A DNA stretch of 64,000 nt from Candidatus Yanofskybacteria bacterium RIFCSPHIGHO2_01_FULL_44_24 (GCA_001794215.1 MGJK01000012.1:80818-144817); one strand, 5' to 3'; numbered from the stretch's first letter, positions 3,949 through 62,214 are shown. Notes: generated by a model from the sequence alone, not told the origin. Numbers and translations: made by a program.

Positions 3949-4605
3949 ATGGTTAATAAAGAAAAATTAGGCGAGCCGATTGGGGTTGGCGGGGAGAAAA
4001 AAGTATACCAAGACCCGAAAAACCCTGATCGAGTAGTGGGAATTTTTAGAGAGCATATCGAAGAAACGCCCAATCAGATTAAAGCTCGATTTTATCTTAC
4101 AAAAATCCTGCACCTCTTATTTCCCAAAAATATCCCCGACATGCATTGGGCCGGAAGTGAGCCTAATGCATATCAGGCAGATAGAAAAGAGCACGACGAA
4201 AGGCATGCCACATTACGAGATTATGTGTTGTCCGGGGAGGGCGATAAATATATAGGTATGTCCGTTGAGGTCAAGAAAGACTTAGAAAGAAAAGCGGACG
4301 ACGCTTTCCAGGAGCATATAAAAGATAAGGATGTAAGAAGTTTCGTAGATAGGTTGGATGAATTAGGGATCAGGTCAACCGATATGGCATCAGTTAACTT
4401 TTCGAAAGACCCCGGGGGTAACGTCTTATATCTCGATACTTTTTATGTCTGGAAAAGGAACATGTATGACAGGCTCCAATTATTTTGTGATTTCGATAAA
4501 TTAGAGAACGCATTTGCGCAGTTGCCAGAGGCCGATCGGGCGAAGGCCAAGAATTATTTATCACGATTGAAAAAACTTTATGAGGAAGAAAGTAATTCCA
4601 AATAA
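3949..4605 (+). CDS. Hypothetical protein
   Basis: 218-aa ORF with no recognisable motif. It sits tightly packed between secA and the epimerase gene. Confidence 0.4.
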   Translation: MVNKEKLGEPIGVGGEKKVYQDPKNPDRVVGIFREHIEETPNQIKARFYLTKILHLLFPKNIPDMHWAGSEPNAYQADRKEHDERHATLRDYVLSGEGDKYIGMSVEVKKDLERKADDAFQEHIKDKDVRSFVDRLDELGIRSTDMASVNFSKDPGGNVLYLDTFYVWKRNMYDRLQLFCDFDKLENAFAQLPEADRAKAKNYLSRLKKLYEEESNSK

Positions 4606-6876: not shown

Positions 6877-6897
6877 AGGCTAAGAAAAAATTATCTT

Positions 6898-7110
6898 GAG
6901 GGCACGGTGTAAAAGTCACTCAGCCTTGGCTTATTCGAGGTACGCCATAAAGACGCTTTGCTTCAACCTATTCAGGGCACGGCATAGATTTTTGCTAAAA
7001 TCTTGCCTTTTACTCCCGCCAGTCGCGGTCCGTAAATCCCTTCATAGGTTGAAGCCTCGCTTAGGGTTTTAAATAAAGGTCAGCGCAAATCCTCTCATAA
7101 GCCAAGGCTT
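6898..7110. repeat. Modular intergenic repeat element, locus A (members of a dispersed family; see loci B-D)
   Basis: Segment 6971-7040 is 69/70 identical to the reverse complement of 48426-48495. Segment 6900-6940 is 39/41 identical to the reverse complement of 48526-48566. A ccgc-cagtc-gcgg hairpin is followed by tccgtaaatccc. Confidence 0.8.
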
Positions 7111-7183
7111 CGTTATTATTTTCCGCAAGTCCCTCTAAATAGCTCTTCTTTGCTATATAATAGTTGATATCAAGCCAATAAAT

Positions 7184-10357: not shown

Positions 10358-11119
10358 ATGTTCGAACTTAAAGAGAAGGTCGCGGTAGTGACCGGTGGTC
10401 GAAGAGGTATGGGCAGGGCTCATGCCGTGGCTTTGGCCGCTCAAGGCGCTCATGTAGTCGTAACTGATGTCGATTCATCAGCGTGTCAGCCGGTAGTCGA
10501 TGAGATACGGCTGTCCGGAAGCAGGGCATCCTGTTTCAAGATGGATGTGTCTGATAAGCGCGAAGTCGATCGGGTCTTTGACGAGGTAATTAAGGAATAC
10601 GGGAAGATAGATATACTTGTAAATAATGCCGGAATTTTTGCCTCTAAGCCGGCGCTGGATATCAGCGAAGATGAGTGGGAGAAAATGATTCATATCAATT
10701 TGCGGGGCCAGTTTTTGTGCGCCCAAAGAGCCGCGAAAGAAATGGCGAAAAATAAGTGGGGGAGGATAATTAATATTTCTTCGATTGCCTCCGGCGGGGT
10801 TGGTGTCGGTTTTGCCGGCGCGGCTCATTACACTGCTTCCAAGGGGGGCATAATCGGCATGACCGAGACTCTGGCGGTGGAGCTGGCTTCATTGGGAATT
10901 AATGTCAATGCAATTGCTCCTGGAGCGATTGATACTCCGATGATCGATGCCGCTAAAATACCAAAGGAAGCGCTCGATGCCATGCTTCAGTCCATCCCTC
11001 TAAGAAGGATCGGCCGGCCCGAAGAGGTTTCAGCGGCGGTTATTTTCTTGGCATCGGAGGAAGTTAGCTATATTACTGGTGCTACTTTGTATGTTGACGG
11101 AGGCTGGTTAGCGGCTTAA
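10358..11119 (+). CDS. SDR-family oxidoreductase (FabG-like 3-oxoacyl reductase fold)
   Basis: TGGRRGMGRAHA (TGxxxGxG), NNAG, and the catalytic S...YxxxK (YTASKGG). Confidence 0.9.
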   Translation: MFELKEKVAVVTGGRRGMGRAHAVALAAQGAHVVVTDVDSSACQPVVDEIRLSGSRASCFKMDVSDKREVDRVFDEVIKEYGKIDILVNNAGIFASKPALDISEDEWEKMIHINLRGQFLCAQRAAKEMAKNKWGRIINISSIASGGVGVGFAGAAHYTASKGGIIGMTETLAVELASLGINVNAIAPGAIDTPMIDAAKIPKEALDAMLQSIPLRRIGRPEEVSAAVIFLASEEVSYITGATLYVDGGWLAA

Positions 11120-11142
11120 TCTGTGCTTAAATAAACAAACTT

Positions 11143-11598
11143 ATGACAAAATATCAAAAAATTTCGATGTTCTTTCTACGGTTATCTATCGGTTGGCTGA
11201 TGTTTTATGCTGGTATAACTAAGGTCATCAATCCCGATTGGTCGGCGGCCGGATATTTGAAGGGAGCCAAGATGCTCACGGGATTTTACGGATGGCTTAT
11301 CAGTCCCGGAATTCTTCCCGGTTTGAATTTTGTAAACGAATGGGGACTGACCTTGCTTGGTGTATCCCTGATTTTAGGAGTCGGAGTGCGTTTAAGTTCG
11401 GTTTTGGGCGCAATCCTGATGTTACTTTATTACTTGCCCCTTGGACTTCCTTATCCTAATCCCCATTCACTTATAGTCGACGAGCATATCATTTACATGT
11501 TTGTTTTACTCATGTTTGCTACCTATCGTGTCGGGCGAGTCTGGGGATTGGATAGTAAACTCTCGAATTATTCAAGCTTTTTTGCTAAGCTTGGATAG
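11143..11598 (+). CDS. DoxX-family membrane protein
   Basis: LRLSIGWLMFYAGITK plus hydrophobic helices. Confidence 0.55.
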   Translation: MTKYQKISMFFLRLSIGWLMFYAGITKVINPDWSAAGYLKGAKMLTGFYGWLISPGILPGLNFVNEWGLTLLGVSLILGVGVRLSSVLGAILMLLYYLPLGLPYPNPHSLIVDEHIIYMFVLLMFATYRVGRVWGLDSKLSNYSSFFAKLG

Positions 11599-17744: not shown

Positions 17745-17821
17745 CCCGAGCCCTCGTTGTTAAAGAATCAATCTACCAGACTATATCAGATCATTCATGA
17801 TTGTCCAGAGATCCGGCTTAC

Positions 17822-18200
17822 GTTAGGGAGGGCTCGATCTATAGGGCACGGCATAAATTTCTGGTGAAATTTTGCCTTTTGCTCGCCTCGGCCAGTCTGC
17901 GCAAATCCCTATAAATCAGGCCCTCCCTAACGATCAGGTAGCCAAATCAATTATTATTTTAGGGATTTACGCAAAACTACATAGCGAGCCCCCTTGTCTA
18001 TCTGAGGCATTTGAGACCCCGCCCCTTGCATGGTTCTGAAGGGGCGGGGCGAACATAGCTGAGTCCCGTCGTTGGCGGGACGGAGGCGTGCTGAAGATAG
18101 ATAGGGGGTGAGTAAAATTTATGGCATGCCTCGAATAAGCCAAGGCTGAGAGGCTTTTATGTCGTGCTCGAAAGAGACTTGCTTATCGGCTTATTAGCAT
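17822..18200. repeat. Modular intergenic repeat element, locus B (about 108-nt unit bounded by 11-bp perfect inverted repeats)
   Basis: ttagggagggc (17823-17833) and gccctccctaa (17920-17930) flank a segment containing tatagggcacggcataaa and gcgcaaatccct. The locus also holds a GC-only 9-bp hairpin ccccgcccc/ggggcgggg (18017-18049), gcatttgagacccc, and cctcgaataagccaaggctgag (18129-18150). Confidence 0.75.
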
Positions 18201-18269: not shown

Positions 18270-19013
18270 ATGCGAAAGTCAGTTCTTTTACTGTCGTCTT
18301 TGTTTTTTGTTTTGTCGGTTTCCACTCTTGTTTATGCTAAGGCTCGAGATTATGAGTCTATTTTCTCTGCGGGATACGGCAGCGGTAATATTCAGGCTGT
18401 TCCGAGGCAGGATCCTCCTCCTCCTCCAAGAACGCTGCCTCCTTCAGGCGGATCATCCGGCGGTTCTGATCCCGATCGGGGTTCGGCCGGTAAGCGTACG
18501 GGCGAGAATAATAGAGGCAGGGATCGTGATAATTCACCCGTAAACGGCAGAGCGATTCCACGTTCTCAGCCGCCGCGAGTTTACATTCAGCGGGACCCGA
18601 TATATTTCGGATATGGACAAAACTTGTGTTGGCCTCGGAGTTACTATGACCGCAATTATTATGGTTACGATCCAAGGTGTGATCCTTACTTTTGGCGTCA
18701 TCCCCATAGTTCACCAAGAATCCGTTACGTCTATAGTCCCGGAAACAGCAGACCGGCCGTACCCGAAGCTCCTGTGATGGGTTCGATTCGTCTGAGGGTT
18801 AATCCCAAGACTGCTTCGGTCCTTATTAACGGAGTCCTTATGGGTATCGTCGATGAGTTTGACGGACTGACCAATCATTTGAAGCTTGAGCCGGGATTAT
18901 ATCAGCTTGAAATTCGAGCCGACGGCTATAAAGTTTTCAGCAAAGAGCTGAGAGTCGTTGGCGGAAAGACCGTCACTGAGCGCGCTACTCTCCAGAAGGT
19001 TCAGAAGAAATGA
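18270..19013 (+). CDS. Secreted Pro/Gly-rich protein with a C-terminal PEGA domain
   Basis: Signal-peptide-like N-terminus, a PPPPPRTLPPSGG low-complexity region, and the C-terminal GSIRLRVNPKTASVLINGVLMG...LEPGLYQLEIRADGYKVFSKELRV, which is PEGA-like. Confidence 0.55.
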   Translation: MRKSVLLLSSLFFVLSVSTLVYAKARDYESIFSAGYGSGNIQAVPRQDPPPPPRTLPPSGGSSGGSDPDRGSAGKRTGENNRGRDRDNSPVNGRAIPRSQPPRVYIQRDPIYFGYGQNLCWPRSYYDRNYYGYDPRCDPYFWRHPHSSPRIRYVYSPGNSRPAVPEAPVMGSIRLRVNPKTASVLINGVLMGIVDEFDGLTNHLKLEPGLYQLEIRADGYKVFSKELRVVGGKTVTERATLQKVQKK

Positions 19014-26138: not shown

Positions 26139-27929
26139 ATGCCAGACAATGACGAACAATTAATAGTACTTGGTGAAACCAACTTCAGAAACCACAGGTC
26201 TCGTTTCGGAATAAAGACCGACGATCGGAGGCGCCATATGTATGTCGTCGGTTCAACCGGCATGGGCAAGTCGGAATTTTTGAAGAATATGGCCATTCAG
26301 GACATTGAAGCCGGCCATGGCGTGGCGTTTATCGATCCTCACGGCGATCCGTCCAACGACCTTCTCGATCATATACCCGCCCATAGAATCAAAGACGTTA
26401 TTTATTTCGACCCCGGAGACTTAGAGTACCCGATTGCATTCAATGTGATGGAGGGCGTCGGTTTTGATTACCGTCATTTGGTAGCCAGCGGTTTGGTCGG
26501 AGTATTCAAAAAAATATGGGGAGTTGAGGCGTGGTCCGGAAGAATGGAATATATTCTTAACAATACCATCTTGGCTCTCTTGGAGTATCCGGATTCTACC
26601 TTATTAGGAATAAACCGGCTGATGTCGAATAAAGAATACCGCAAGAAAGTCGTTTCTTCGCTCAAGGACCCGATCGTAAAAGGGTTCTGGGTGGAGGAGT
26701 TCGCAAAGTATGCCGATAAGTTCGCCACAGAAGCTACGGCCGCCATTCAGAATAAAGTCGGTCAGTTCTCTTCCAACAATCTGATCAGGAACATCATTGG
26801 CCAGTCAAACTCCAAATTAGATATCAGGAAAATAATGGATGAGGGGAAAATCCTCATTGCCAACGTTTCGCGGGGTAAAATAGGAGAAGACGCCTCCCGT
26901 CTTTTAGGAGCCTTCTTGGTCACCAAGATCCAGTTAGCGGCTATGTCCCGGGTTGATATTCCTGAGAACAAAAGGCGCGACTTTTATCTTTATGTCGACG
27001 AATTTCAGCACTTTGCCACGGAATCATTCGCCAACATTCTTTCCGAGGCGAGAAAATTCCATTTAAGCCTGACCATGGCCCATCAGTATATCAAACAGAT
27101 GGAAGAGCCGGTCAGGGATGCCGTTTTCGGCAACGTCGGAACCATCGTGACATTCAGAGTCGGAGCGGAGGACGCTGAATTTTTAGAAAAATGGTTTGCT
27201 CCGGATTTTATGATGGCGGATATAGTGAATCTTGGAAAATACAATATATATCTCAAGCTGATGATAGACGGAATTTCATCAAAGGGTTTTTCGGCTGCCA
27301 CTCTGCCGCCTTTTCCCCCGATGGATAAGAGCAATCGGGAAGCAATCATTGATTATTCCCGAAAGAATTACGGAACGCCGCGGGCCGAGGTTGAGGCCGG
27401 TATCGCCGAATGGGCCGGGATGCTTGAGTCCAAAACCGAGCAGGCAAGAGACGACAGACCGCGCCAATTTCGCGACGACAACAGGTCGGCGCAGAGATTT
27501 GATGACAGACCGCGCGCTCCTCGCTCAAACTACGACGCAGGGAGCAGATATGATAATGGTCCCAGGGATTTTCGTCGCGACGACAGAAGCGGCGGAGGAC
27601 AGGTCCGCGATATAAACAGAGATTTTTCTATTCAACAGCGGGCGCCGGCACCTCAGAAATTTCCGGATAGGCCTCCGGTTCAGCCAAGGCAGCCTATTGC
27701 ACAGCCTATGCCCGAAAGAAAACCCGAGCCAAAATTAGAACTAAAACCGGATTTGCCCAAACCGAAACCATCCGGCCTCTCTTTGGACGAAACTTTAAAA
27801 TCCGGGCCGGTTAATTTCAGGGGCCAAAAAATAGAACCTCGACAGCCCAAAGAAAAGAAAGAGGTTGATACGGGGGAATTGAGGAAGATCTTAGAGGGAA
27901 TGGGCAAGAAGGAGGAACAGAGCGGATAA
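26139..27929 (+). CDS. Type IV coupling protein-like P-loop ATPase (TraD/TraG/VirD4 family-like) with a long disordered R/D- and P-rich C-terminal tail
   Basis: Walker A VVGSTGMGKSEF and Walker B FYLYVDEFQHFA. IYFDPGDLEYPIAFNVME resembles the DP...NPL block of coupling proteins. The C-terminal approximately 170 aa are RDD/RD repeats then PxP-rich. No transmembrane segment. Confidence 0.55.
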   Translation: MPDNDEQLIVLGETNFRNHRSRFGIKTDDRRRHMYVVGSTGMGKSEFLKNMAIQDIEAGHGVAFIDPHGDPSNDLLDHIPAHRIKDVIYFDPGDLEYPIAFNVMEGVGFDYRHLVASGLVGVFKKIWGVEAWSGRMEYILNNTILALLEYPDSTLLGINRLMSNKEYRKKVVSSLKDPIVKGFWVEEFAKYADKFATEATAAIQNKVGQFSSNNLIRNIIGQSNSKLDIRKIMDEGKILIANVSRGKIGEDASRLLGAFLVTKIQLAAMSRVDIPENKRRDFYLYVDEFQHFATESFANILSEARKFHLSLTMAHQYIKQMEEPVRDAVFGNVGTIVTFRVGAEDAEFLEKWFAPDFMMADIVNLGKYNIYLKLMIDGISSKGFSAATLPPFPPMDKSNREAIIDYSRKNYGTPRAEVEAGIAEWAGMLESKTEQARDDRPRQFRDDNRSAQRFDDRPRAPRSNYDAGSRYDNGPRDFRRDDRSGGGQVRDINRDFSIQQRAPAPQKFPDRPPVQPRQPIAQPMPERKPEPKLELKPDLPKPKPSGLSLDETLKSGPVNFRGQKIEPRQPKEKKEVDTGELRKILEGMGKKEEQSG

Positions 27930-27986
27930 TCCTTTCACCTTCGGCACGTCTCCGATTGCTCCTGCGGTAATCTCAACTATTTCTCA

Positions 27987-28023
27987 CCCTGCCATTTCAG
28001 ATCCGAGCAAATGGCAGGGTTTC
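27987..28023 (+). terminator. Rho-independent terminator-like hairpin
   Basis: ccctgccatttcagatccgagcaaatggcaggg is a perfect 11-bp stem followed by ttt. Confidence 0.5.
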
Positions 28024-28230
28024 GAATGTCTCAGGTAAAAAGATTATCCGCTTTGTGGCAAGGTAGAAGCTGAGAAGTTGACCATGGCATCGAAAAACTA
28101 TTGTCGGAAACGGCGGGTTTGCCGGGGAGTGAATTTTTGAACTGTCTTGCGTCTATTGCACCTTGGGAGCCTTTCAAAAATCTACTCCTCGGTTTTAATT
28201 TTTACGGAACTGTGTTAAGTTAGGCTTATA

Positions 28231-29564: not shown

Positions 29565-29663
29565 TATATCCGCCCTTAGCCCCGGCTTCCTGTCGGCTTC
29601 GGTAGGAAATCAAATATATCCGCCCTTAGCCCTGCCTGCCGGCAGGCAGGTCAGTTGGTAGAG
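29565..29663 (+). repeat. Two partial 5' copies of the tRNA-Lys gene; the second is interrupted by a 20-bp perfect palindrome
   Basis: tatatccgcccttagc occurs at 29565-29580, at 29615-29630, and again at the intact tRNA (29913-29928). The second copy reads ccgcccttagc + cctgcctgccggcaggcagg + tcagttggtagag, which is tRNA positions 1-11, the inserted palindrome, then positions 12-24. Confidence 0.8.
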
Positions 29664-29909: not shown

Positions 29910-29918
29910 TTTGTATAT

Positions 29919-29991
29919 CCGCCCTTAGCTCAGTTGGTAGAGCAGCTCCCTTTTAAGGAGACGGTCGTAGGTTCGACTCCTACAGGGCGGA
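29919..29991 (+). tRNA. tRNA-Lys (anticodon UUU)
   Basis: Hand-folded: 7-bp acceptor stem ccgccct/agggcgg, D arm gctc-agttggta-gagc, anticodon loop cTTTTaa, T arm gtagg-ttcgact-cctac, discriminator A, and no encoded CCA. Very similar to the E. coli tRNA-Lys(UUU) backbone. Confidence 0.85.
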
Positions 29992-30595
29992 CAATATAAA
30001 AAGTCAGCATTTTTTGGAGTGTTGGCAATTCGGGAATATGCCTTTTTGTATTGTATTTCCTGAATCTCTTTGTTTTGGAACCAAACGTTCCAAAGTAGTG
30101 AATTTATCATTTGATACCTTTTTGAATCTTCGCCATTTAAAAAGTCATTTTTGGCGTTTTTAGCTTGTAAAAATACTTCTTTTGTCCGTTCCAAAGTAGA
30201 TAAGGCGGTTTCCGGATTATCCTTTTTAGTCCGGCTTAACTGATTTTCTAATTCAACCCTCTGATTATTGAGTTCCCTTATCTTATCGTCATATAACTCA
30301 ATTCTAAGGCTTCCAGAGGCCATAGCATCAGCCAGGCGGGATTCTCTTTCGTCTATCAGTTTCAATTCTTTTTGAATACCGGAAATGATAGTTTCAGACC
30401 TATCACTTGCCCCTATCTTCTGTTTGGCCGCCTCATACATGATTTCAATGGCCTCATCATCAAAAGCCAGATCGCCAAGCTTATCGGCAATCATCTTTGT
30501 AATAATTTCTTCCCGCATATATGCCTTGCCCTGTTCGCAAGAACCCTTTCCATTTGTGCAGTAATAATACCTATAACCCTTCTGCCACAGAGTGC
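29992..30595 (-). pseudogene. C-terminal fragment of a large serine recombinase (zinc-ribbon remnant plus coiled-coil region); N-terminal catalytic domain absent
   Basis: The minus-strand frame upstream of the track ORF start reads STLWQKGYRYYYCTNGKGSCEQGKAY-MREEIITKMIADKL... This is the YYxC...C half of the recombinase zinc beta-ribbon, followed by about 180 aa of coiled-coil. An in-frame stop lies just upstream, so there is no resolvase domain. The track ORF 29925-30518 runs antisense through the tRNA, so its last roughly 20 codons are artefactual. Confidence 0.45.
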
Positions 30596-33437: not shown

Positions 33438-33986
33438 ATGGATCAGACAGGTTTGGCTCTCAGTAACGACTTAGTCGGTCTGCTGGATAGTCTTAAGAAC
33501 GAGGCTCTCAAAGTGATAGAAGTGCCCAAGTTTCGTATACCGTTTTGGCCAAAAGGCCTTATGTGCATCTCGGATCTTGGAAAGAGAGGGTACCGCGTTC
33601 CTTCCGAGGATTCAAACGGCTTGCTCTCCTGGAAAAAAGGCAAGCACAAGATCTCCTTTGTCGTAGGAGTAGACGGCGAGATAAGATTCGAGTTCCGCGG
33701 GATGTTTAAACAATGGAGAAAATTCCCCGTCTTTTCTTCGGTGCAGGTTAGTGACGGTTACCGCGGATATTATGACTCCCCGGTTTACCAGGCTTCTTCC
33801 GACCACGATAGTAGTAATATCTCACGGTTGGGAGCGTTAGAGCTGTTTGATCAATTCAAGGTGGAAATTCTTTCTCTTGCGCTTGAGACAATCCGAACTT
33901 CTGAACATAAAGAAGTGGCCGAATCGGTCAAGAAAGCTTTCGAACCCTTTGTGCCGTTTGTTGTGGCGGATATGCTGTTGAAGTGA
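33438..33986 (+). CDS. Paralog 1 of a novel ~180-aa protein family, motifs EVPKFRIPFWPKG ... LFDQFKVEIL ... VKKAFEPFVPFVVADML
   Basis: Shares N-terminal, central and C-terminal blocks with the ORFs at 37075-37602 and 37599-38147. No transmembrane segment and no known domain. Confidence 0.5.
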   Translation: MDQTGLALSNDLVGLLDSLKNEALKVIEVPKFRIPFWPKGLMCISDLGKRGYRVPSEDSNGLLSWKKGKHKISFVVGVDGEIRFEFRGMFKQWRKFPVFSSVQVSDGYRGYYDSPVYQASSDHDSSNISRLGALELFDQFKVEILSLALETIRTSEHKEVAESVKKAFEPFVPFVVADMLLK

Positions 33987-35782: not shown

Positions 35783-37078
35783 ATGAGTGGAAATAAGGCG
35801 GTCAGAGAAAGGATAATCAGGGAAAGGGTTCAGCTCCTGCTTCATCGTCCCTTTTTCGGGTATCTCACTCTAAGTCTTGATCTGAAAGAAGAGCTTGGAA
35901 TACCTACTATGGCGACAGATGGAACTCGCCTTTACTATAATCCGGCTTTTGTGGATGGGCTTGATCCTAAAGTTCTTCAGATGATTCTTGCCCATGAAAC
36001 GCTTCATTGCGCCTTGGGCCATCTCTGGAGGCTTGAAAAACGTAATCGTGAAAAGTGGAATTATGCCACCGACTATGCGATCAATTTGATGCTGAAAAAA
36101 GAAGGATTCACGGTGCCGGCCAATTGTTTATGCGACGATAAATTTGACGGTATGTCGGCTGAAGAGATATATCACAGACTGCCTGATCAAAAACCCAAGG
36201 GGTCTTTAGTCAGCTCTCACGATAAATGGCCGGGTAAGAATAAGTGTAAGGATAAAGAGAACAAGAAGGCGTCTCAGACTCCGCAAGATAAAAGCGGTGA
36301 AGGGGGAGATAAAAAGCCTGAGAATCAGGGCCAGCAGAGTAAAGACGATTCTAAAGAGGATGGGAGCGGGGGCGACAATAAAGACAGGATTGAAGGCGAT
36401 CAGCCTCAGTCCGCCCCGCCCCAAATTTTAAGTGGCGACGATCAAGAGGAGCTTGTGAAAGAGTGGCAAGATAAACTGATCCGCGCCGCTAATGCGGCAA
36501 GAATGCAGGGTAAATTGCCCGGCAGGATGGGTCAGCTTATCCAGGATGTTCTTGAGCCTAAGCTCGACTGGAAGGTAATCCTGAAGGATTTAGTCACTTC
36601 TTTGGTCCGAAACGATTTTCGTTTATTTCCGGCCTCAAAGAAGCATCTTTGGCGTAATATCTATCTGCCTTCCCTTCACGGTGAGTTGATAGAATTAGCC
36701 GTAGGCATAGATACTTCCGGCTCAGTTTCTGATGAGCAATTCCAGGAGCTGATTGCCGAAGTGCGGGGCATTGCCGAGCAATTTGAGAATTTCACCCTTC
36801 ACTTGTTTTTCTGCGATACAGAGATCCACGACCGGATGACCATCTCATCTAACGACGTATGGCCGGATAAATTTACCAAAAATGGAGGCGGTACGAGTTT
36901 TGTTCCGGTGATAGAGCTGATCGACAAAGAGCTTCCGCATATTGCCGGACTGGTCTACCTTACTGACGGGGATGGAGCGTATCCTAAGAATCCGCCGGAC
37001 TATCCGGTGATCTGGGTGCTTAATAAAGATAAGGTCATGCCCTGGGGCGAGAGCATTAAGATGGAGGAGGCCCGATGA
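35783..37078 (+). CDS. VWA-domain protein with an N-terminal zincin-like HExxH domain (DUF2201-like) and an acidic/K-rich linker
   Basis: AHETLHCALGH contains an HExxH motif in the N-terminal domain. The C-terminal GIDTSGSVSDEQ is a MIDAS DxSxS motif in a VWA-like fold. Start is 10 nt after the AAA gene stop, the classical MoxR-VWA pairing. Confidence 0.8.
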   Translation: MSGNKAVRERIIRERVQLLLHRPFFGYLTLSLDLKEELGIPTMATDGTRLYYNPAFVDGLDPKVLQMILAHETLHCALGHLWRLEKRNREKWNYATDYAINLMLKKEGFTVPANCLCDDKFDGMSAEEIYHRLPDQKPKGSLVSSHDKWPGKNKCKDKENKKASQTPQDKSGEGGDKKPENQGQQSKDDSKEDGSGGDNKDRIEGDQPQSAPPQILSGDDQEELVKEWQDKLIRAANAARMQGKLPGRMGQLIQDVLEPKLDWKVILKDLVTSLVRNDFRLFPASKKHLWRNIYLPSLHGELIELAVGIDTSGSVSDEQFQELIAEVRGIAEQFENFTLHLFFCDTEIHDRMTISSNDVWPDKFTKNGGGTSFVPVIELIDKELPHIAGLVYLTDGDGAYPKNPPDYPVIWVLNKDKVMPWGESIKMEEAR

Positions 37079-37602
37079 CACCGACTCAAAATCTTTCCGA
37101 ACTCAAAACATACCTTGATCAGTTTAAAGAGGAGATGGCTCAAATTGATATCCGGAATCTTCAGGAAATTCCCAAATTTCGTATCCCTAATTGGCCGGAA
37201 GAAGCAGGGTCTGTGGCGGTTGACTTCTGGTTCAGAGAGCTAATGTATCCTTGCCGGGGCGAGGCATCTTCCATGCTGAACGTTCGAAGAAAAAGGGTGC
37301 GTCATATGAGGGTTGAAATATATCATGGACTTATCTACATAACCAAGATGCATTTGAATTCAAGCAACCAGGCTTTTCAATCCGACAATCTTACCGGGCT
37401 TAATCGCACCAATTGTTTCATTATTTTCCATCAGCTTATCGACCCGATTTGCAGGGCAATAATCAAAAAGCTTAAGAAGAGATATCGTAAGTTCAAGGAT
37501 GAAGCGGAGCAATATAACAGAGTCTGTGACGCCGTCAAAAAATCCTTCGAACCTCTGATCCCTTTCATTGTGGCGGATATTTTGGAAGGGGAGGAAGGAT
37601 GA
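37075..37602 (+). CDS. Paralog 2 of the novel ~180-aa family (EIPKFRIPNWPEE ... VKKSFEPLIPFIVADIL)
   Basis: Start overlaps the VWA gene stop (ATGA), suggesting translational coupling. Conserved terminal motifs are retained, the middle is divergent. Confidence 0.5.
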   Translation: MTPTQNLSELKTYLDQFKEEMAQIDIRNLQEIPKFRIPNWPEEAGSVAVDFWFRELMYPCRGEASSMLNVRRKRVRHMRVEIYHGLIYITKMHLNSSNQAFQSDNLTGLNRTNCFIIFHQLIDPICRAIIKKLKKRYRKFKDEAEQYNRVCDAVKKSFEPLIPFIVADILEGEEG

Positions 37603-38147
37603 CAAGTTCCATTTCGATAGTCCCGATGAGTAAGGCTAACATGGGCGAGGAATTTTCCGGGATTGAGTTTCAGGATATCAATGTTCCAAAGTTCAAAATT
37701 CCAAACTGGCCCAAAGGGGTAGGCATATCCCTTAAGTTAAGCAAGAGGCCGTATCATATTCCCGTGGAGTCTGACGGCAAGTACCTATGGTATAGGAATA
37801 AGCATAGGCTGTTCGTTGAGATAACGGGCGAGGGCTTCATCAGGTTTCAGTTCTTGCGCGCCGTCCTTGGATTAAGGCCGGCCCAATTTTGCGGTAGCTA
37901 CGCATCCAACGGCTATACGGTAAGTTGGTTAGATGTCGGCCATTACTGGGTTGATTCCGGTGCGGACGACTTACCGAGAAGGCTACCCGCCCTGATGTTG
38001 TTTGACCAGTTCAAGGTCAACATTCTTCTGGAGCTGGTTTCGAAGCTGAAGAACGATTCTGCGATACATAATCAGGTTGTTGAAGAAGTCAAGAAAGCCT
38101 TCGAACCCTTTGTGCCGTTTGTTGTTATGGATCAGTTACTGTCATAG
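37599..38147 (+). CDS. Paralog 3 of the novel ~180-aa family (NVPKFKIPNWPKG ... LFDQFKVNIL ... VKKAFEPFVPFVVMDQL)
   Basis: Overlaps paralog 2 by 4 nt. The paralog closest to paralog 1 across the full length. Confidence 0.5.
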   Translation: MTSSISIVPMSKANMGEEFSGIEFQDINVPKFKIPNWPKGVGISLKLSKRPYHIPVESDGKYLWYRNKHRLFVEITGEGFIRFQFLRAVLGLRPAQFCGSYASNGYTVSWLDVGHYWVDSGADDLPRRLPALMLFDQFKVNILLELVSKLKNDSAIHNQVVEEVKKAFEPFVPFVVMDQLLS

Positions 38148-46095: not shown

Positions 46096-47172
46096 ATGGC
46101 CAAATCTTTATTGGCGGTTGTCATTGTTATTTTGGTCTTCGGGTTGGTTGTTTTATCTTCGGCCGGAATTGTCGACGGGCAAAAGAAATTCGGGTCGGCT
46201 TACTACTATCTAATCCATCAGCTCTTATACGGCGTTTTGCCGGGCCTATTATTCATGTTCGGTTTATCCAGGACGGATTATAGGCGTTGGAAAAAACTTG
46301 CTCTTCCGATATTGGCCGGCGCTCTTTTCCTGATGGTGCTGGTCTTTGTTCCCAGCGTCGGTCAGGGCCTCAAGGGGGCGACGCGCTGGCTTAATTTGGG
46401 CATCTTTTCTTTTCAACCCTCGGAAGTGTTAAAGTTATCCCTTATTTTGTATTTTGCGGCTTGGTTCGGAAATCGGGACGAAAGGATTAGGGGCTGGACT
46501 TACGGCATGGCCCCCTTTTTTGTTGTTTTAGGCTTGGCCGGAGGGCTTTTGTTATATCAGCCGGACGTAGGCACCCTTATTGTTGTTGCCGGCATAATAC
46601 TTTCAATGTATTTTTTCGGGGGAACAAATTTGAAAAGACTGGGAATAATTATTCTTGTGTTGATAGCTGTTATGGCGGCGGCTATTTACGCCGAGCCTTA
46701 CCGCTTTGATCGGGTGAAAACATTTTTCGATCCATCAATTGATCCCCGCGGGATATCTTATCAGGTTAATCAGTCCTTAATTGCGATAGGTTCGGGCGGG
46801 TTGTTCGGAGTCGGATACGGTAACAGCACTCAAAAATTCGGTTTTCTTCCTGAGGTGGTTAACGATTCTATTTTCTCGGTGATTGCGGAAGAATTGGGTC
46901 TGATCGGCGCCTCGGCGACCATCGGATTATTTCTGATCTTGGCTTTTTTTCTGACCCGGATAGCCAAGGAAGCTCCTGATAAATTCGGACGGTTGGTAGT
47001 GATGGGAATGGCGGTTTGGATAACGGGCCAGGCCTTCTTAAATATAGCTGCGGTTTCCGGATTGGTTCCCTTGACCGGCATTACTTTGCCGTTTATCAGT
47101 TACGGCGGAACGGCTATAGCCTCTCTTTTAGCCGGCATGGGGATTGTAATCAATATTGCCAAGAGGACTTAG
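46096..47172 (+). CDS. ftsW: SEDS-family peptidoglycan polymerase (FtsW/RodA)
   Basis: 358 aa and polytopic, with the conserved ...GATRWLNLG...FQPSE... and C-terminal GLVPLTGITLPFISYGGTA blocks. Confidence 0.85.
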   Translation: MAKSLLAVVIVILVFGLVVLSSAGIVDGQKKFGSAYYYLIHQLLYGVLPGLLFMFGLSRTDYRRWKKLALPILAGALFLMVLVFVPSVGQGLKGATRWLNLGIFSFQPSEVLKLSLILYFAAWFGNRDERIRGWTYGMAPFFVVLGLAGGLLLYQPDVGTLIVVAGIILSMYFFGGTNLKRLGIIILVLIAVMAAAIYAEPYRFDRVKTFFDPSIDPRGISYQVNQSLIAIGSGGLFGVGYGNSTQKFGFLPEVVNDSIFSVIAEELGLIGASATIGLFLILAFFLTRIAKEAPDKFGRLVVMGMAVWITGQAFLNIAAVSGLVPLTGITLPFISYGGTAIASLLAGMGIVINIAKRT

Positions 47173-47220
47173 CTCTCGTAAATTAAAAGTTTAAAACTAA
47201 AAGTGAAAAATTTAGGAAAT

Positions 47221-47250
47221 CAAAATCTGCCTTTTAGGCAGATTTTGATA
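47221..47250 (+). terminator. Rho-independent terminator after ftsW
   Basis: aaatctgccttttaggcagattt hairpin followed by tg. Confidence 0.55.
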
Positions 47251-47423
47251 ACAATTTTGCGGCGGTGTTACTTCGATGAAATGATGCCTTGAGACAATAG
47301 CCGTGCCGCTGCGGATTTTAACCGGGCGGCTTTGTTCCCCGCACTACAACGGGCATATGCCAACGCATGCTTCCGCATGTGGCATAGAGAAGAGATGCCT
47401 GTTGAGTGTCGGGGCAAGCAGTG

Positions 47424-47696
47424 TTATTTCAACGCATCAGATTTTTTAGACAGCAACCGTGCTGCCGCTGATTTGAGTCTCGAGGCCTTGTTCTTTTTGA
47501 TAACGCCGGTTTTGGCAGCCTTGTCTATCTTTTTATAAACCTTAGGAAGAAGTTTCTTGGCCGCTTCTTTGCCGGTGGCTGCAAGCTTCTTCAGTTCCTT
47601 CATTACGAGCTTGTAGGCGTTGCTTTTGGCTAAGTTACGGATTCGTCTGGTTTTCGATTGTCTTAGGGCCTTTTCGGCCGATTTTGTAATTGGCAT
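47424..47696 (-). CDS. rpsT: 30S ribosomal protein S20
   Basis: MPITKSAEKALRQSKTRRIRN... is a canonical bS20 N-terminus. The track ORF extends 7 codons further upstream to a TTG start. Confidence 0.85.
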   Translation of the reverse strand: MPITKSAEKALRQSKTRRIRNLAKSNAYKLVMKELKKLAATGKEAAKKLLPKVYKKIDKAAKTGVIKKNKASRLKSAAARLLSKKSDALK

Positions 47697-48250: not shown

Positions 48251-48361
48251 AGCGGGATTTATCCCGCTTTTCGTTTTTCCGGAGCCTTGACTATTTATGT
48301 TCAGATTACTCAAGCGAAACCTTAACCCAACGAAGAGATTTACAAAAAGCTATATGGCGAA

Positions 48362-48612
48362 GCCCCTTGTCATTCTGCAGCATTTGAGACCCCGAAACCG
48401 CTCAAGCGAGGCCATAATCCATAAAGGGATTTACGGACCGCGACTGGCGGGAGTAAAAGGCAAGATTTTAGTAAAAATCTATGCCGTGCCCTGAATGGGT
48501 TATGGCCGAGCGTTTTTATGGTCTGCCTCGAATAAGCCAAGGCTGAGTAACTTTTACGCCGTGCCCTGAATGGGTTGAAGTAGAGCGTCTTTATGCCGTA
48601 CCCTGATTAACC
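48362..48612. repeat. Modular intergenic repeat element, locus C
   Basis: Contains gcatttgagacccc, the segment 48426-48495 (the inverted copy of 6971-7040), cctcgaataagccaaggctgag (48526-48547), and three degenerate copies of t[at]tgccgtgccctgaatgggtt at about 48480, 48555 and 48593. Confidence 0.8.
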
Positions 48613-48627
48613 AAGGCGGAGGCCTTT

Positions 48628-50643: not shown

Positions 50644-51015
50644 TATATTTGACTAATTGGTTGGCTACTGTTACTATATTTTAACCATACTTCGATTGAT
50701 AAAAGGGCGACGGATGAGAATAGTTCAGAACCAGTTCTTCCGTATTTTCTTTAGCGTTTTATCCGGTCTGTTCGTTAGATATTTTTTGGGATTTGGTTGG
50801 GGTCTGGTGGCTGCGTTAATAGTCGTTATGTTTCTCAACGTCCTTGCCGGGATTGACCGGGCTCGAGGCCGCTCTTAGCGGCCTTTTTTATTTCTTTTTT
50901 CAGTGGTAAGCTTAGATAGAAGTACCCGCCTATGCCCTTCAGGCTTCGGCGAGGTGCTGAATTTTCTAACAACTCGGCTTCGCAAGCATTCGCTTGCCTC
51001 GTTGAGGAAATTCGC

Positions 51016-51639: not shown

Positions 51640-52055
51640 TTTCAATCTACTAACGGCACGCCATAAAATGTTACTCGGGTTTAACCAATGAAGGGCACGA
51701 TGTAAATTCCTGCCTGCCGGCAGGCAGGTCTACTGAAATTTCATCTTTTACTCGCTCCAGTCGAGCTCCGTAAATCCCTTCATTGGCTAAACCCTCGCCC
51801 TGAGCTTGGTCAGCCTGCACAAATCCCTTAAGAGATTAAAAGCCTCGCTTGAAAAGCTCGGGGTCTCAAATGCTTCAGATGGACAAGGGGCTTCACCTTA
51901 GTTTTTTCGTAAATCCCTTCATGGGTTAAGGATTCGCTTGATGCTTGAACAAACAACCTGCGCAAAGATATTGTGGCTCTGGTTTTCGAACGGCCCTGAT
52001 GGGTCTTGACAAAAATTTTGGTTAGGTGTATTGTATCGTAAATCCATGAAGCAAC
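51640..52055. repeat. Modular intergenic repeat element, locus D
   Basis: Contains ggcacgccataaaatg, the palindrome cctgcctgccggcaggcagg (51709-51728), the hairpin gctc-cagtc-gagc then tccgtaaatccc (51754-51778), and three copies of the cgtaaatccc(t)tcatNGGNTAA word. Also has ggggtctcaaatgc, the reverse complement of gcatttgagacccc. Confidence 0.75.
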
Positions 52056-52773: not shown

Positions 52774-54194
52774 GAAGATTTTTTAGTAAGCAGAGAACCG
52801 TATATGGTGTCTTCGATTTCATAGCCCAGATTTTGTATCTGGGTTCTTATTTTGTCTGATTCTTTAAAATTCTTTTCTTCGCGGAATTTTTCGCGTTTTT
52901 CGACTAAAACTTCTATTGCGGGAGGGATTTCATCCTGAGTGTCCGGAACAATTCCGAGTATTGAGTTAATGTAGCTAAGCATCTGCGACGCTTCTTCTGC
53001 CCCTTTTTGTCCTATTGAATCGCTGGTCAGATCGGTGTTCATTCTTTTTATGAATTCAAATATAGCACCAAAGGCCTTGGGAGTATTAAAATCATCGGTC
53101 AAAGCTTCATCGAAGGCTTCTCTAAGGGCATAAGCAACGATTCCGTCGTTTTTGTTCCTTTCAATGTTCTCAAGTTTTTTTGTCAGCTCTTTTATTCTTT
53201 GAATACCTGCCCGCGCCTGTTTGAGCGCTTTATCGCTGAATTCAAGAGGCTGGCGGTAATGACCGCTCAAAAGATAAAATCGCAGAACCTCTTTCGGGTA
53301 TTGTTTCAACAATTCGTGAACTGTCGTGAAGTTACCCTTGGATTTAGACATTTTCTCCTCTTTGTTTATCAGAAATGCCACGTGCATCCAGTATTTAACA
53401 AAAGGTTTTTTGCCCGAGGCTGATTCTTGCTGGGTGATCTCGGCTTCATGGTGAGGGAATATCAAATCTTGTCCGCCGCCGTGGATATCATACTGCGGAC
53501 CGAAATAGTGCTCAGTGATGGCCGTATCCTCTATGTGCCAACCCGGCCGTCCCCAACCCAACGGTGTGGCCCAGGCAGGCTCACCGTCAGCAATTTCCAA
53601 TTTCCAATTTCCAATTTCCAATTCTTTACCAACTTTTACTAATTTCCAAAGGCAGAAGTCGCCCTTATTTCTTTTTTTGTCATTTTCATCTATCCGGCTG
53701 ACTGCATCGTCGGCCATCTGGGCTTTTCGTCCAGATAATTTCCCATAATCTTTGAATGTAGAAAGATCGAAATACCATCCGTCGCCTTCGATCAAGTAAG
53801 CATGTTTCCGGTCGATTAATGCTTTGACCTGTTTAACGACTTGCCCGATATGCTCCGTCGCCGGAACGTATTTGGGAGAGTCTATTCCGAGAGCCTTCAT
53901 GTCTTCTTCGAATTTTTGGCGGTATTCTTTTGCCCACATTAGAGGGTCTTTTTTATTTTCCTTGGCTCGCTGGATGATCTTGTCGTCTATATCTGTAATA
54001 TTCTGTATGTAATCAACTTGATAGCCTCGATATTTTAGATATTTGGCGACAACATCAAAAAAAACAAAAGTCCGGGCATTGCCGATATGAATATAGTCAT
54101 AAACCGTCGGTCCGCAGACAAACATTTGTATTTTTTTATTCTCGCGCGGAACTATTTTTTCTTTAGTTTTAGTAAGGGTGTTGTGGATGATCAT
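52770..54194 (-). CDS. cysS: Cysteinyl-tRNA synthetase (contains an in-frame insertion encoded by a 7-nt tandem repeat)
   Basis: Class I HIGH (HIGNARTF) and KMSKS (KMSKSKGN). GEPAWATPLGWGRPGWHIEDTAI is a CysRS zinc and anticodon region. The insert KELEIGNWKLEIAD is encoded by caatttc x5 at 53591-53625. Confidence 0.9.
   Translation of the reverse strand: MIIHNTLTKTKEKIVPRENKKIQMFVCGPTVYDYIHIGNARTFVFFDVVAKYLKYRGYQVDYIQNITDIDDKIIQRAKENKKDPLMWAKEYRQKFEEDMKALGIDSPKYVPATEHIGQVVKQVKALIDRKHAYLIEGDGWYFDLSTFKDYGKLSGRKAQMADDAVSRIDENDKKRNKGDFCLWKLVKVGKELEIGNWKLEIADGEPAWATPLGWGRPGWHIEDTAITEHYFGPQYDIHGGGQDLIFPHHEAEITQQESASGKKPFVKYWMHVAFLINKEEKMSKSKGNFTTVHELLKQYPKEVLRFYLLSGHYRQPLEFSDKALKQARAGIQRIKELTKKLENIERNKNDGIVAYALREAFDEALTDDFNTPKAFGAIFEFIKRMNTDLTSDSIGQKGAEEASQMLSYINSILGIVPDTQDEIPPAIEVLVEKREKFREEKNFKESDKIRTQIQNLGYEIEDTIYGSLLTKKSS
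53591..53625. repeat. Tandem heptanucleotide repeat (caatttc x4 plus caattct) inside the cysS coding sequence
   Basis: Read directly. 35 nt of 7-mer repeats, translated on the minus strand as (E)LEIGNWKLEIA. Confidence 0.85.
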
Positions 54195-54199
54195 ATCAA

Positions 54200-55507
54200 T
54201 TAAAACCAGGAGCCGATGAGGGCTCCGGCTTTATCGGCGGGGAATTCGGTTATAAACAATACTACTATCGCCGCTATCATTACCACAAGAGTAGTATAGC
54301 CGAGGATATTTGATGTTCGGCCGTTTACATTGGGGCCGACGATGGCGGGATTATTGGACATATGCAGGATTATGGATATCAGAAATGGAGCAACGATGCC
54401 ATGGATAATGGCCGTAAAGAATAAAGCTTGTATCGGGCTGATACCGGTATAGGTGATCATTAAACCGACAAGGGTTGAGAATATGATTACCATATAAAAA
54501 GCCTTAGCCTTAGAGAAGGGTCGGTCTAATCCGCCCTTCCAGTTGAATATCTCAGCCAAAACATAGGCTGATGATCCGGCTAATATCGGTATGGCAAGGA
54601 GTCCGGCGCCTATTACACCCAGAGAAAATAATATATACGCATAATCGCCGGCCAAGGGGCGTAAAGCTTCGGCTGCGTCTTTGACCGTTTCTATGTTGTG
54701 TATTCCGGCATTAAACAAAACGGAACTGGTGAGGGCGATTATAAAAAAACCGATTAGGTTCGAGAAAAACATTCCAAGCTTAGTATCTTTTGCGGCTCTT
54801 CTCAACTCGCTTCGTGTTACTATTTTGTATTCACAGATATAAGGACCGTCTTCGGACTTGTCTTTTATTCTTTTTTCTTCTGCCTCTTCACTGGCCTGCC
54901 AGAAAGCTAAGTAAGGAGAGATGGTAGTTCCGAACAGCGCTACTACGATAAGAAAGTTGTCTCTATTGATTTGAAACGAAGGAGCGATCATTTGCCAGGC
55001 CAATTTCGGCCATTCTTCGACAACTATGAAACCGGCCGCAATATATGCCAAAAGGGTCATCGAGAGCCACTTGAATATGACGACTATTTTTCTGTAGGGT
55101 AAAACTACGGTCAGGAAAAGAATTGCCACTACTATTATCCACGATAATAGTTGAGCTGACCCCGGCATTAAGAGCTCTATAGCTGAAGCCATACCGAAAA
55201 TATCCGCGCCTATGTTAAAGGTATTAGCCAGTATAATCAGAGAAGATATTAGTATCAGGGTGATCTTGGAATAATGTTTTTTGATGTTTCCGGCCAATCC
55301 GCACTGAGAAGCCAGTCCTATTTTAGCGCTCATCTCTTGCACCACGGTCATCAGGGGCAGGGTATAAAGCATAGACCAAAGGGCGTGAGGCCCCATTTTT
55401 GCTCCTGCAACCGAATAAGTGATGATTCCCGAGGGGTCATCGTCCGAAGCCCCGGTAATTAAGCCGGGCCCAAGCGATTTCCATAGATTTTTTATTTTCT
55501 GCAGCAT
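54200..55507 (-). CDS. mntH: NRAMP-family divalent metal (Mn2+/Fe2+) transporter
   Basis: GPGLITGASDDDPSGIITYSVAGAKMG ... MTVVQEMSAKIG is the NRAMP consensus. About 11 transmembrane helices. Confidence 0.85.
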   Translation of the reverse strand: MLQKIKNLWKSLGPGLITGASDDDPSGIITYSVAGAKMGPHALWSMLYTLPLMTVVQEMSAKIGLASQCGLAGNIKKHYSKITLILISSLIILANTFNIGADIFGMASAIELLMPGSAQLLSWIIVVAILFLTVVLPYRKIVVIFKWLSMTLLAYIAAGFIVVEEWPKLAWQMIAPSFQINRDNFLIVVALFGTTISPYLAFWQASEEAEEKRIKDKSEDGPYICEYKIVTRSELRRAAKDTKLGMFFSNLIGFFIIALTSSVLFNAGIHNIETVKDAAEALRPLAGDYAYILFSLGVIGAGLLAIPILAGSSAYVLAEIFNWKGGLDRPFSKAKAFYMVIIFSTLVGLMITYTGISPIQALFFTAIIHGIVAPFLISIILHMSNNPAIVGPNVNGRTSNILGYTTLVVMIAAIVVLFITEFPADKAGALIGSWF

Positions 55508-55570: not shown

Positions 55571-56374
55571 ATGCTATTATTTTGTTTTCGCATCACTATG
55601 GCTGAAATATCCATCAAGGCGGAACCTATTTTTCATATCGGTTCTTTTGTTTTCACCAATTCCTACCTTTTATCCGTAATCGTGGTAGGAATTTTTGTTT
55701 GTTTATCTTTGTGGTTGAAAGATCATTTGAAAACCATTCCCGGCAAGCTTCAAAGCGTATTCGAGCTTTTAACTGAAGAAATTTTCAAGATGATGGATAC
55801 CGTATTGGGCTCTCGGAGCCTTTCTGAAAAGTATTTCCCGATCGTAACTACGGTTTTCCTTTTTGTATTACTGTCAAACTGGCTGGGCCTCCTCCCCGGA
55901 GCGGGTTCCCTGGGTATTCTGCATGAGATCCAGCATGAGGGAGAGTACCGGACTATCCTGGTGCCTTTTCTGAGGGCTCCTTCAGCCGACTTGAATTTTA
56001 CCGTTGCCCTTGCCCTGGCAGTTATGTTTGCTATTAACTTCTTTGGCTTGACCGCCCTGGGCATCAAGCGCTATGCCGGAAAATTCTTCAACTTTAAAAA
56101 CCCTATTTATACTTTTGTCGGCCTGCTTGAATTAATTTCAGAATTTGTTAAAATAATCTCGTTTTCGTTTCGTTTATTCGGTAATATATTTGCAGGCGAG
56201 GTACTGCTTATCATCATAGGATTCCTTGGCCCTTATTTTTTGCCGCTACCGTTCCTTTTTTTGGAAGTATTTGTAGGGTTTATTCAGGCGTTTATTTTCG
56301 CTATGCTCACGCTGGTATTCATAGGAATGTCCGTGAGTCATCACCCTGACACCCACCAAGCAGATATTTCTTAG
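55571..56374 (+). CDS. atpB: F0F1 ATP synthase subunit a
   Basis: LSNWLGLLPG ... FRLFGNIFAGEVLL, including the conserved Arg in the RLFGN motif. The likely start is the internal MAEISIK. Confidence 0.9.
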   Translation: MLLFCFRITMAEISIKAEPIFHIGSFVFTNSYLLSVIVVGIFVCLSLWLKDHLKTIPGKLQSVFELLTEEIFKMMDTVLGSRSLSEKYFPIVTTVFLFVLLSNWLGLLPGAGSLGILHEIQHEGEYRTILVPFLRAPSADLNFTVALALAVMFAINFFGLTALGIKRYAGKFFNFKNPIYTFVGLLELISEFVKIISFSFRLFGNIFAGEVLLIIIGFLGPYFLPLPFLFLEVFVGFIQAFIFAMLTLVFIGMSVSHHPDTHQADIS

Positions 56375-56510
56375 CAGCTGTCGCATAGACGCGAATTTAT
56401 TAAGTTCTTGCCAATAGCCTGATGAGTCCCGTCTGAACGCGGGAATAAAAGAAGCAACTGCTTGGTGGGTGTGAGGGATCGCGAAGAGGTCGAGCAACAT
56501 TAAATAACTA

Positions 56511-60737: not shown

Positions 60738-60744
60738 ATCCGAA

Positions 60745-62214
<1,470 letters not shown>

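Follow-up and report, generated by a model that had tools for sequence, protein, structure and literature searches.

The repeats flagged between the genes of this stretch of DNA are real: they make up a well-defined and previously undescribed family, in which two modules have folds supported by covariation. Their host is Candidatus Yanofskybacteria, a member of the Parcubacteria (CPR) from Rifle groundwater. Exact protein matches assign the window to a contig of 153 kb of Candidatus Yanofskybacteria bacterium GW2011_GWA2_44_9 and to its RIFCSP sister assemblies. We examined about 140 kb of its genome, i.e., the window (the whole stretch of 64,000 nt that was analysed), neighbouring DNA and other contigs of the same genome, using two covariance models built here, R1 for module Y and R2 for module Z. 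This portion holds seven full copies of Y, four full copies of Z and three 5' fragments of Z, distributed over 10 intergenic regions; every copy sits between genes, and all the family members found belong to one organism. The family is therefore seen well beyond the four loci (A to D) of the initial annotation, with a fifth locus in the window (E, 27923-28056) and more copies outside it in the same genome (including those of contig L011 and of loci F, G and H). Searches of the window with R1 and R2, filters off, added no further copy.

Inventory and architecture of the repeat loci

When the four intergenic spacers were compared to the window by self-BLAST, loci A and B matched each other at E = 2e-57, and the other locus pairs, with links to 17.8-18.2 kb and 51.6-52.1 kb, at E values of 1e-8 to 1e-23. 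Moreover, the words quoted in the initial annotation were all found again in these two regions by motif scans, with 0 matches expected in shuffles, so that chance is excluded. The identities first reported between A and the reverse complement of B were recomputed with the same outcome: 69/70 for 6971-7040 and 48426-48495, 39/41 for 6900-6940 and 48526-48566, and a match of 31/35 for 6941-6975 and 48566-48600. The elements of the window are as follows:

6900..6940, + strand: locus A, M1, a hairpin-type unit carrying the invariant 22-mer CTCAGCCTTGGCTTATTCGAGG at 6919-6940; 39/41 to B.
6947..7069, + strand (R1 orientation): locus A, Y, a three-way junction (R1 142 bits, E 1e-36) with outer stem P1 GCTTCAACCTAT/ATAGGTTGAAGC, P2 AGGG/CCCT, hairpin P3 with loop TGCT, and hairpin P4 TTTAC..CCGC-CAGTC-GCGG..GTAAA.
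7091..7120, - strand: locus A, degenerate inverted M1-like copy with the core AAGCCAAGGCT, also in direct family D11.
17818..17936, + strand: locus C, Y with a 26-bp outer stem (inverted repeat I16) and the P4 variant TTTGC/GCAAA; R1 109.7 bits.
17980..18112, + strand: locus C, full Z (R2 142.8 bits), made of an outer stem containing an internal loop of tandem G-A, then CUGAGGCAUUUGAGA, hairpin 1 (11 bp, loop GCAUGGUUCUG), CGAACAUAGCUGAG, hairpin 2 and GGAGGCGUGCUGAAG.
18118..18175, - strand: locus C, inverted M1, 81% to A (inverted repeat I4), with the exact 22-mer at 18129-18150; on the + strand it reads GCCTC...GAGGC, then TTTTAT.
27923..28056, - strand: locus E, full Z (R2 138.4 bits), 83% identical to the Z copy of L011; inverted repeat I22 is its outer stem, and its 3' end shares 7 nt with the convergent gene 26139-27929, on the side of the stop codon.
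48310..48395, + strand: locus B, where the 5' third of Y, read on the opposite strand and finishing in GAGATTTAC, makes up a half-unit H, followed by a Z 5' fragment (48353-48395, ...GCATTTGAGACCCCG); BLAST aligns it with D (125 nt, 80.8%) and with C at 17961-18021; inverted repeats I6 and I9.
48397..48519, - strand: locus B, Y (R1 135.8 bits), core 71/72 to A, with different P1 arms (GGCCATAACCCAT/ATGGATTATGGCC).
48526..48627, - strand: locus B, tandem array upstream of Y, with M1 (48526-48566), one additional M2 (48567-48600) and, directly against the stop codon of uvrB, a degenerate M1; period 75 nt (direct families D4 and D5).
51665..51807, + strand: locus D, Y (R1 116.4 bits), with a 20-nt GC-rich palindrome, CCTGCCTGCCGGCAGGCAGG (51709-51728), inserted in P3.
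51808..51941: locus D, composed of a degenerate half-unit, of a 5' fragment of Z whose Z-sense strand is the - strand (51858-51900), and of a half-unit H (51908-51941); BLAST match to B (80.8% over 125 nt); inverted repeats I6, I7 and I9.

The M1 unit is a hairpin of roughly 40 nt, whose 22-mer is identical in 4/4 copies, i.e., three exact ones in the window, where 0 are expected by chance, and a fourth in L011. With 6911-6940 and 7091-7120 forming an inverted repeat (I14, 77%), locus A as a whole is a unit of roughly 210 bp bounded by inverted M1 copies.

Two architectural statements of the initial annotation had to be revised. First, the modules of A and B do not differ in order: the two loci are colinear and form an ungapped inverted pair over 167 nt (6896-7062 vs 48404-48570, 88% according to the repeat finder). 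The order only seemed different because B has an extra tandem copy of the 75-nt M2+M1 unit (48480-48535 and 48555-48610, spacing 75), M2 of locus A being closer to the distal copy. Second, the word ggcacgg/ccgtgcc, described as lying at the junctions of shuffled modules, is in fact the conserved three-way-junction strand of module Y; ggcacgg is also the start of each ~37-nt unit. The remaining words are parts of Y, Z and M1, among which cgtaaatcccttcat is the 3' side of P4 and P2 of Y, and gcatttgagacccc the 5' joining strand of Z.

The loci are mosaics in which the relative orientation and order of the modules vary. Half-units of Y (H) are also found alone, Z is cut off after GAGACCCCG in B, D and F, and truncated Y and truncated Z adjoin full copies in these same three loci. 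The Y pattern M4 matches locus D at 51769 and 51908. Insertions occur as well: that of locus D is visible as 20 columns in the Y alignment, and copy G has 49 additional nt in hairpin 2 of Z.

The palindrome of locus D is perfect and G+C-rich, and has a second copy at 29631-29650, near tRNA-Lys, as well as a related sequence in L023 (about 4174-4224); it may be a second, tiny dispersed repeat. In the same region, the tRNA-Lys leader and the first roughly 12 nt of the gene (TATATCCGCCCTTAGC...) have two partial direct copies (29565-29647 and 29914-29946), placed 270-350 nt upstream of the tRNA gene (29919-29992). Downstream of it, from 29.9 to 33.4 kb, lie small ORFs without family match, and the region may be the remnant of an integrated element. 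Other repeated sequences of the window include a 67-nt segment with 67-81% identity between copies (33905-33971, 37512-37578, 38066-38132), each copy lying in the 3' end of an ORF of ~180 aa (33438-33986, 37075-37602, 37599-38147), and the three ORFs form a small paralogous family; Pfam gave no match for the last two, and the gene table lists no Pfam family for the first. Runs of the heptamer AAATCCT/AAATCCG are found at 1690-1748, inside the secA reading frame, and at 60736-60800.

Folds of modules Y and Z

The initial annotation considered the repeats as possibly structured; two modules indeed have strongly covarying folds, their stems varying between copies yet staying complementary. Module Y, of ~120 nt, is a three-way junction composed of an outer stem P1 (12-26 bp), a stem P2 (AGGG/CCCT), a hairpin P3 with loop TGCT or TACT, and a hairpin P4 (TTTAC, 4-bp stem, loop CAGTC, GTAAA). 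Over the seven copies, its 36 pairs correspond to 252 pair cells, of which 96.8% are standard, and 21 of these pairs have changed on both sides (double compensatory changes). None of 500 shuffles reached the observed pairing, compensatory changes or covariation score, although the count of further pair types is unexceptional (118/500 shuffles); in controls with slid partners, pairing falls to 32-55%, and the minimum free energy (MFE) z-scores of the copies range from -2.9 to -5.8. The 4-bp stem of P4 is illustrative, as it exists in five versions among seven copies (CCGC/GCGG, GCTC/GAGC, AATC/GATT, AGCT/AGCT and GCCT/AGTC). Likewise, it is in both arms of P1 that the mismatches of A with B are concentrated; there, 13 of about 24 positions differ and are still complementary, for a core identity of 71/72. 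The segments ATTCAGGGCACGG and CCGTAAATCCCTTCAT are conserved imperfect inverted repeats that pair through AGGG/CCCT and enclose two extra hairpins, the variable complementary part lying outside them. The invariant short motifs of Y are GGGCACGG, CTTTTAC/GTAAATCCC and the loop CAGTC. With 3 G-U vs 6 A-C cells, the count of non-canonical pairs decides for neither strand of Y.

Module Z, of ~135 nt, has a branched fold: its outer stem is interrupted by a tandem G-A loop, which is symmetric and conserved, it also has two hairpins, and its joining strands are invariant. Across four copies, 96.9% of the cells of its 41 pairs are paired and 22 pairs show double changes; 0/500 shuffles reach the observed values, for all five measures. 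Its invariant motifs are GCAUUUGAGACC, the loop GCAUGGUUCUG, ACAUAG and GUGCUGAAG. In Z, G-U cells (18) largely exceed A-C cells (2), and RNAalifold yields -50 kcal/mol on the Z-sense strand vs -37 on the opposite one; this asymmetry of pairs and energies implies that Z has been selected as a single strand of defined polarity, and it is as such a strand that Z folds. A further long hairpin, at 56344-56477, has 29-nt arms that are 86% complementary and separated by 76 nt. It partly overlaps the gene 55571-56374 at its 3' end, and its sequence is not related to that of Y or Z.

These properties bring in the main rival to a repeat of mobile nature, which we hold to be less likely but still a serious alternative, above all for Z: Y and/or Z would be structured non-coding RNAs present in several copies, encoded by small RNA genes or acting in cis, with conserved loops that bind a protein or another RNA, so that the repeats would be paralogous RNA genes and not selfish DNA. 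Several features speak in its favour, namely the proportions of G-U and A-C pairs in Z (11% vs about 1%), the tandem G-A loop and the loop and junction sequences of Z, which are invariant in four copies with covarying stems, and the junction and loop nucleotides of Y, which are invariant while all helices covary. However, G-T wobble is also tolerated in folded single-stranded DNA (ssDNA), and the asymmetry of Z is therefore no proof of RNA. Moreover, broken and scrambled copies are as common as intact ones. Further evidence on this reading comes from the neighbourhood of the elements.

Genomic context, relatives and known element classes

According to the initial annotation, the spacers all lie between convergent or divergent genes, which is incorrect: among the four loci, only C is divergent, whereas A, B and D are co-directional, their upstream genes being dCMP-deaminase-like, uvrB and ruvA, respectively. 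Over the whole set, elements directly follow the stop codons of the dCMP-deaminase-like gene, uvrB, ruvA, dnaK, relA, parB and Sua5, or lie between divergent genes. In 8/10 loci (A, B, D, E, G, H, L011-Y and L011-Z), the copy starts at a distance of a few to about 30 nt from the stop codon of a gene, while C and F are flanked by divergent genes and precede both. Relative to the gene upstream, Y has the same direction in 4/5 co-directional cases and Z the opposite one in 3/3 (E, G and L011), numbers too few for an orientation rule and amounting at most to a trend.

This placement would suit elements acting within the mRNA of the upstream gene, as 3'-end hairpins that terminate transcription or block 3' exonucleases, a role that some enterobacterial REP and ERIC copies have been shown to play by terminating or protecting mRNA 3' ends. 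Besides the proximity to stop codons, all copies have very stable folds on either strand, and a weak 5-bp hairpin with a T-run exists at 48613-48626. We nevertheless regard this explanation as very unlikely: that hairpin is the only site returned by a consensus scan of five loci for Rho-independent terminators (a G+C-rich stem leading directly into a T-tract), with nothing at Y or Z; on the sense strand of the gene, neither module is followed by a T-tract of the terminator type; in E, G and L011, the strand on which Z folds better is antisense to the gene upstream; C and F lie upstream of both of their neighbours; and relatives do without elements at the same genes. A separate A+T-rich structured stretch, at 47089-47271 between a convergent ftsW-like gene and rpsT, has sub-threshold Rfam matches only (AbsR25, 28 bits; MicA, 26 bits) and is probably a bidirectional terminator.

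The same context bears on the non-coding RNA reading. On the + strand of locus C, Z is followed by a hairpin with TTTTAT on the same strand (the reversed M1), then by the promoter-like site of the next gene (TTGATT-N17-TAGTAT, with an overlapping TATAAT 3 nt further on, by reading of the sequence), an arrangement that would be compatible with an RNA gene. In contrast, no conserved promoter or terminator consistently flanks Y or Z; copy G occupies the whole 205-nt dnaK-acetyltransferase spacer and leaves only 24 nt for a promoter; and in E, G and L011, Z runs against the gene that it follows.

The family is also absent from the sampled regions of close relatives. In three related species (RuvA 76-81% identical), the DNA that follows uvrB and ruvA is either compact or has other contents, ruvA directly adjoining the next gene in 2/3 of them, and R1 and R2 detected no copy of Y or Z in 50 kb of their DNA. 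A 20-base Y pattern (M4) was scanned against one genome per species for 185,579 species; the sole match, in Ca. Fredericiella (Chloroflexota), comes without other features of the family and is attributed to chance. Similarly, the only match of the M1 22-mer in a metagenome scan was L011, which exact protein matches identify as another contig of the same metagenome-assembled genome (MAG).

Regarding known classes, the Rfam and IS-end matches that would identify the repeats as something else were both lacking: at gathering thresholds, only tRNA-Lys matches in the whole window; at E <= 10, nothing in it falls on the repeat loci; and short segments searched at E <= 10 reach at best 14-19 bits, vs thresholds of 48-100. 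Phage and plasmid BLAST searches and viral-contig scans with Y, Z and M1 patterns gave no match. A hammerhead or another small ribozyme was rejected, as junction strands are of 1-3 nt, conserved cores are absent and Rfam returned no match; a sigma-54 promoter (GGCACG...TTGC) was rejected on spacing, by reading of the sequence.

A coding origin fares no better, and the initial description of a repetitive element family not explained by any coding feature holds: ORFs across the repeats reach at most 65 aa and have no significant protein-family match, two Pfam listings (ORFs of at least 20 aa, E <= 10) having E values of 0.13-0.18, far below curated cut-offs. Nevertheless, a decayed multi-copy protein gene, or else a guide-RNA array (CRISPR or TIGR), could be evoked because M1, M2 and the 3' part of Y form a head-to-tail series of units of ~37-38 nt, because public annotations call ORFs of 46-65 aa across locus B, and because translations of different copies share GIYG..L..VK. 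Both versions are effectively refuted, the former since stop codons occur in all frames, A/B mismatches are distributed 9/3/8 by codon phase, tracking helices and paired arms and not third positions, and the 65-aa ORF of locus B has no homologues beyond its own cluster among 5.8 billion proteins. As for arrays, units abut without spacers, cas and tas genes are absent, and the neighbouring genes encode neither a Nop-domain nor a Cas protein. TIGR arrays, with alternating repeats of 8-12 nt, 9-nt spacers and an adjacent Nop-domain gene, have a layout unlike that seen here (PMC12045711).

The repeats are not classical MITEs (miniature inverted-repeat transposable elements) either, given that neither the sequence nor the length (12-26 bp) of the outer stem is constant from copy to copy; by eye, no target-site duplication is evident at the ends of Y or Z. 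MITEs have conserved terminal inverted repeats and target-site duplications, and depend on a transposase. Integron attC sites, for their part, are defined by R''/R' boxes (RYYYAAC/GTTRRRY) at the base of the hairpin, a cassette context and the IntI integrase. The repeats resemble attC sites and Vibrio cholerae repeats in their strand-specific folded single strand, in their branched variable terminal structure and in following stop codons directly, with a folding strand antisense to the gene (Z in E, G and L011). Yet copy D alone has a 7/7 match to RYYYAAC, and no copy a full one to GTTRRRY; the inner core is conserved and the outer stem variable, the reverse of attC; and the flanks are syntenic housekeeping genes (uvrB, ruvA, dnaK, parB) instead of cassettes, with no integron integrase in the window.

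A link to the diversity-generating retroelement (DGR) of the genome was dismissed as well, its template/variable (TR/VR) pair being unrelated in sequence to the repeats. This retroelement (L025, 17040-19471) encodes an RVT_1 reverse transcriptase of 348 aa and has a template/variable pair of 139 nt (18456-18594 and 18837-18975, 86% identical), with the second copy at the 3' end of a 211-aa gene. In the window, a gene at 62231-62587 (+) encodes a 118-aa four-helix-bundle protein of the 23S rRNA IVS/bAvd family (TIGR02436, E 5e-37; DGR Avd model, E 3e-10) and is inserted between atpD (ATP synthase beta) and atpC (epsilon).

Probable mobility and comparison with known repeats

The reading that we rate most likely, at slightly better than even confidence, is that of a lineage-specific, structure-dependent and probably mobile family of non-coding repeats, of the REPIN/BIME/ERIC type. 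It is preferred because high density, lineage restriction, mosaic and truncated forms, invariant motifs and covarying stems are combined here as in REPINs. Under this reading, the invariant motifs would be recognition sites for a trans-acting nuclease or transposase, or for an RNA-binding protein; the element would be recognised when folded as a single strand, which for Z would be a defined one, as ssDNA or RNA; and copies would have multiplied and recombined within the lineage. The mosaic and nested forms (truncations of Z, lone half-units of Y, the 75-nt tandem in B, the 20-nt palindrome in D) are consistent with such a history, whereas the lack of conservation of the outer stems, unlike the terminal inverted repeats of classical MITEs, counts against it.

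Neither the window nor its flanks encode a transposase, a RAYT/IS200-type Y1 enzyme or an integrase, and according to Pfam tables, no RAYT gene is found among the genes called in ~140 kb; in REP systems, the gene of this IS200-like Y1 transposase usually has REPs on its flanks. The sole recombinase seen is a large serine recombinase and the sole reverse transcriptase is of the DGR type, both on another contig. Among nine places from different samples, all the assemblies that cover locus B or D have it in identical form (locus A lies outside these places), hence no insertion polymorphism or recent movement is documented. As no transposase, target duplication or insertion polymorphism was found, we infer mobility rather than observe it, and the same applies to the trans-acting factor and to any effect on neighbouring genes. 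Some segments of the window are missing from single public assemblies (L003, L006, L005), i.e., 50818-50868, 47380-47501, 54194-54300, 57232-57262 and 59960-60109; none touches the repeat loci, and since several are inside genes, they look like assembly differences and not like mobile-element polymorphisms.

The closest systems are the REPIN/REP-RAYT elements of Pseudomonas and E. coli, in which REPINs associate conserved REP ends with a variable hairpin and common compensatory changes (Bertels & Rainey 2011, PMC3116915). Like these, the present repeats are short non-coding sequences, dense and extragenic only, with many copies (10 intergenic regions in ~140 kb), conserved end or core motifs, and a variable yet complementary hairpin with frequent compensatory changes (Y 21/36, Z 22/41); both have a predicted folding in ssDNA or mRNA, and both leave singlets or fragments as remnants and form tandem clusters. 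They differ by the absence of a RAYT gene in ~140 kb, by folds that are branched (three-way junction; multi-branch with G-A loop) instead of simple doublet hairpins, by their host, a CPR bacterium with a very small genome, and by the absence of observed excision intermediates or polymorphism.

With BIMEs and the pneumococcal BOX elements, our family shares mosaic intergenic loci built from few modules in variable number, order and orientation, some of which are sequence-invariant (here the M1 22-mer), but there is no sequence similarity and the present modules are longer and individually structured. More generally, BIME, BOX and ERIC elements share the combination of density, mosaicism, invariant motifs and covarying stems; BIMEs bind IHF or gyrase, and BOX elements affect transcripts. 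ERIC (or IRU) elements are imperfect palindromes of about 127 bp, common to several genera of enterobacteria, and are comparable in several respects: a size of ~120-135 nt, a long imperfect palindrome with internal branches, an intergenic position in either orientation, in regions that are transcribed for ERIC, and internal insertions at fixed sites (here 20 nt in P3 of D and 49 nt in hairpin 2 of G). Again, there is no sequence similarity, and the present family was detected in a single species-level lineage.

The association of Y with Z deserves attention. They are directly adjacent in locus C, unlike in L011, where an orphan gene of 127 aa (10909-11292, -; L021 11971-12354) sits exactly between the Y and Z copies, on the same strand. 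Given these two arrangements, Y and Z could conceivably represent opposite ends of a single parent element. The 127-aa product was rejected as a transposase, having neither a Pfam nor a PHROG match and an unusable AlphaFold model (pLDDT 40); its gene has promoter-like and terminator-like signals of its own. A shared cassette gene was likewise discarded, as no homology links the small ORFs beside A, B, C, D and L011.

A functional RNA would explain equally well why Z is so asymmetric between strands and why its tandem G-A loop is conserved and its loops invariant. It is conceivable, if improbable, that Z, and perhaps Y, belongs to a new class of structured RNA, or of strand-specific ssDNA element, in CPR, with invariant loops and tandem G-A pairs recruiting a dedicated protein; Z and Y could then be the RNA or DNA part of an undescribed mobile or genome-maintenance system targeting gene 3' ends.

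In practical terms, the repeats explain spurious calls of hypothetical proteins, such as the ORFs of 46-65 aa over locus B, and the covariation-supported structures of Y and Z could seed new covariance models. CPR (or Patescibacteria) genomes are tiny and tightly packed, and are thought to hold few repeats. In the present one, about one intergenic spacer per 14 kb is filled with folded repeats, which implies either active structure-dependent propagation or use of the folds by the host, in a genome of the episymbiont type.
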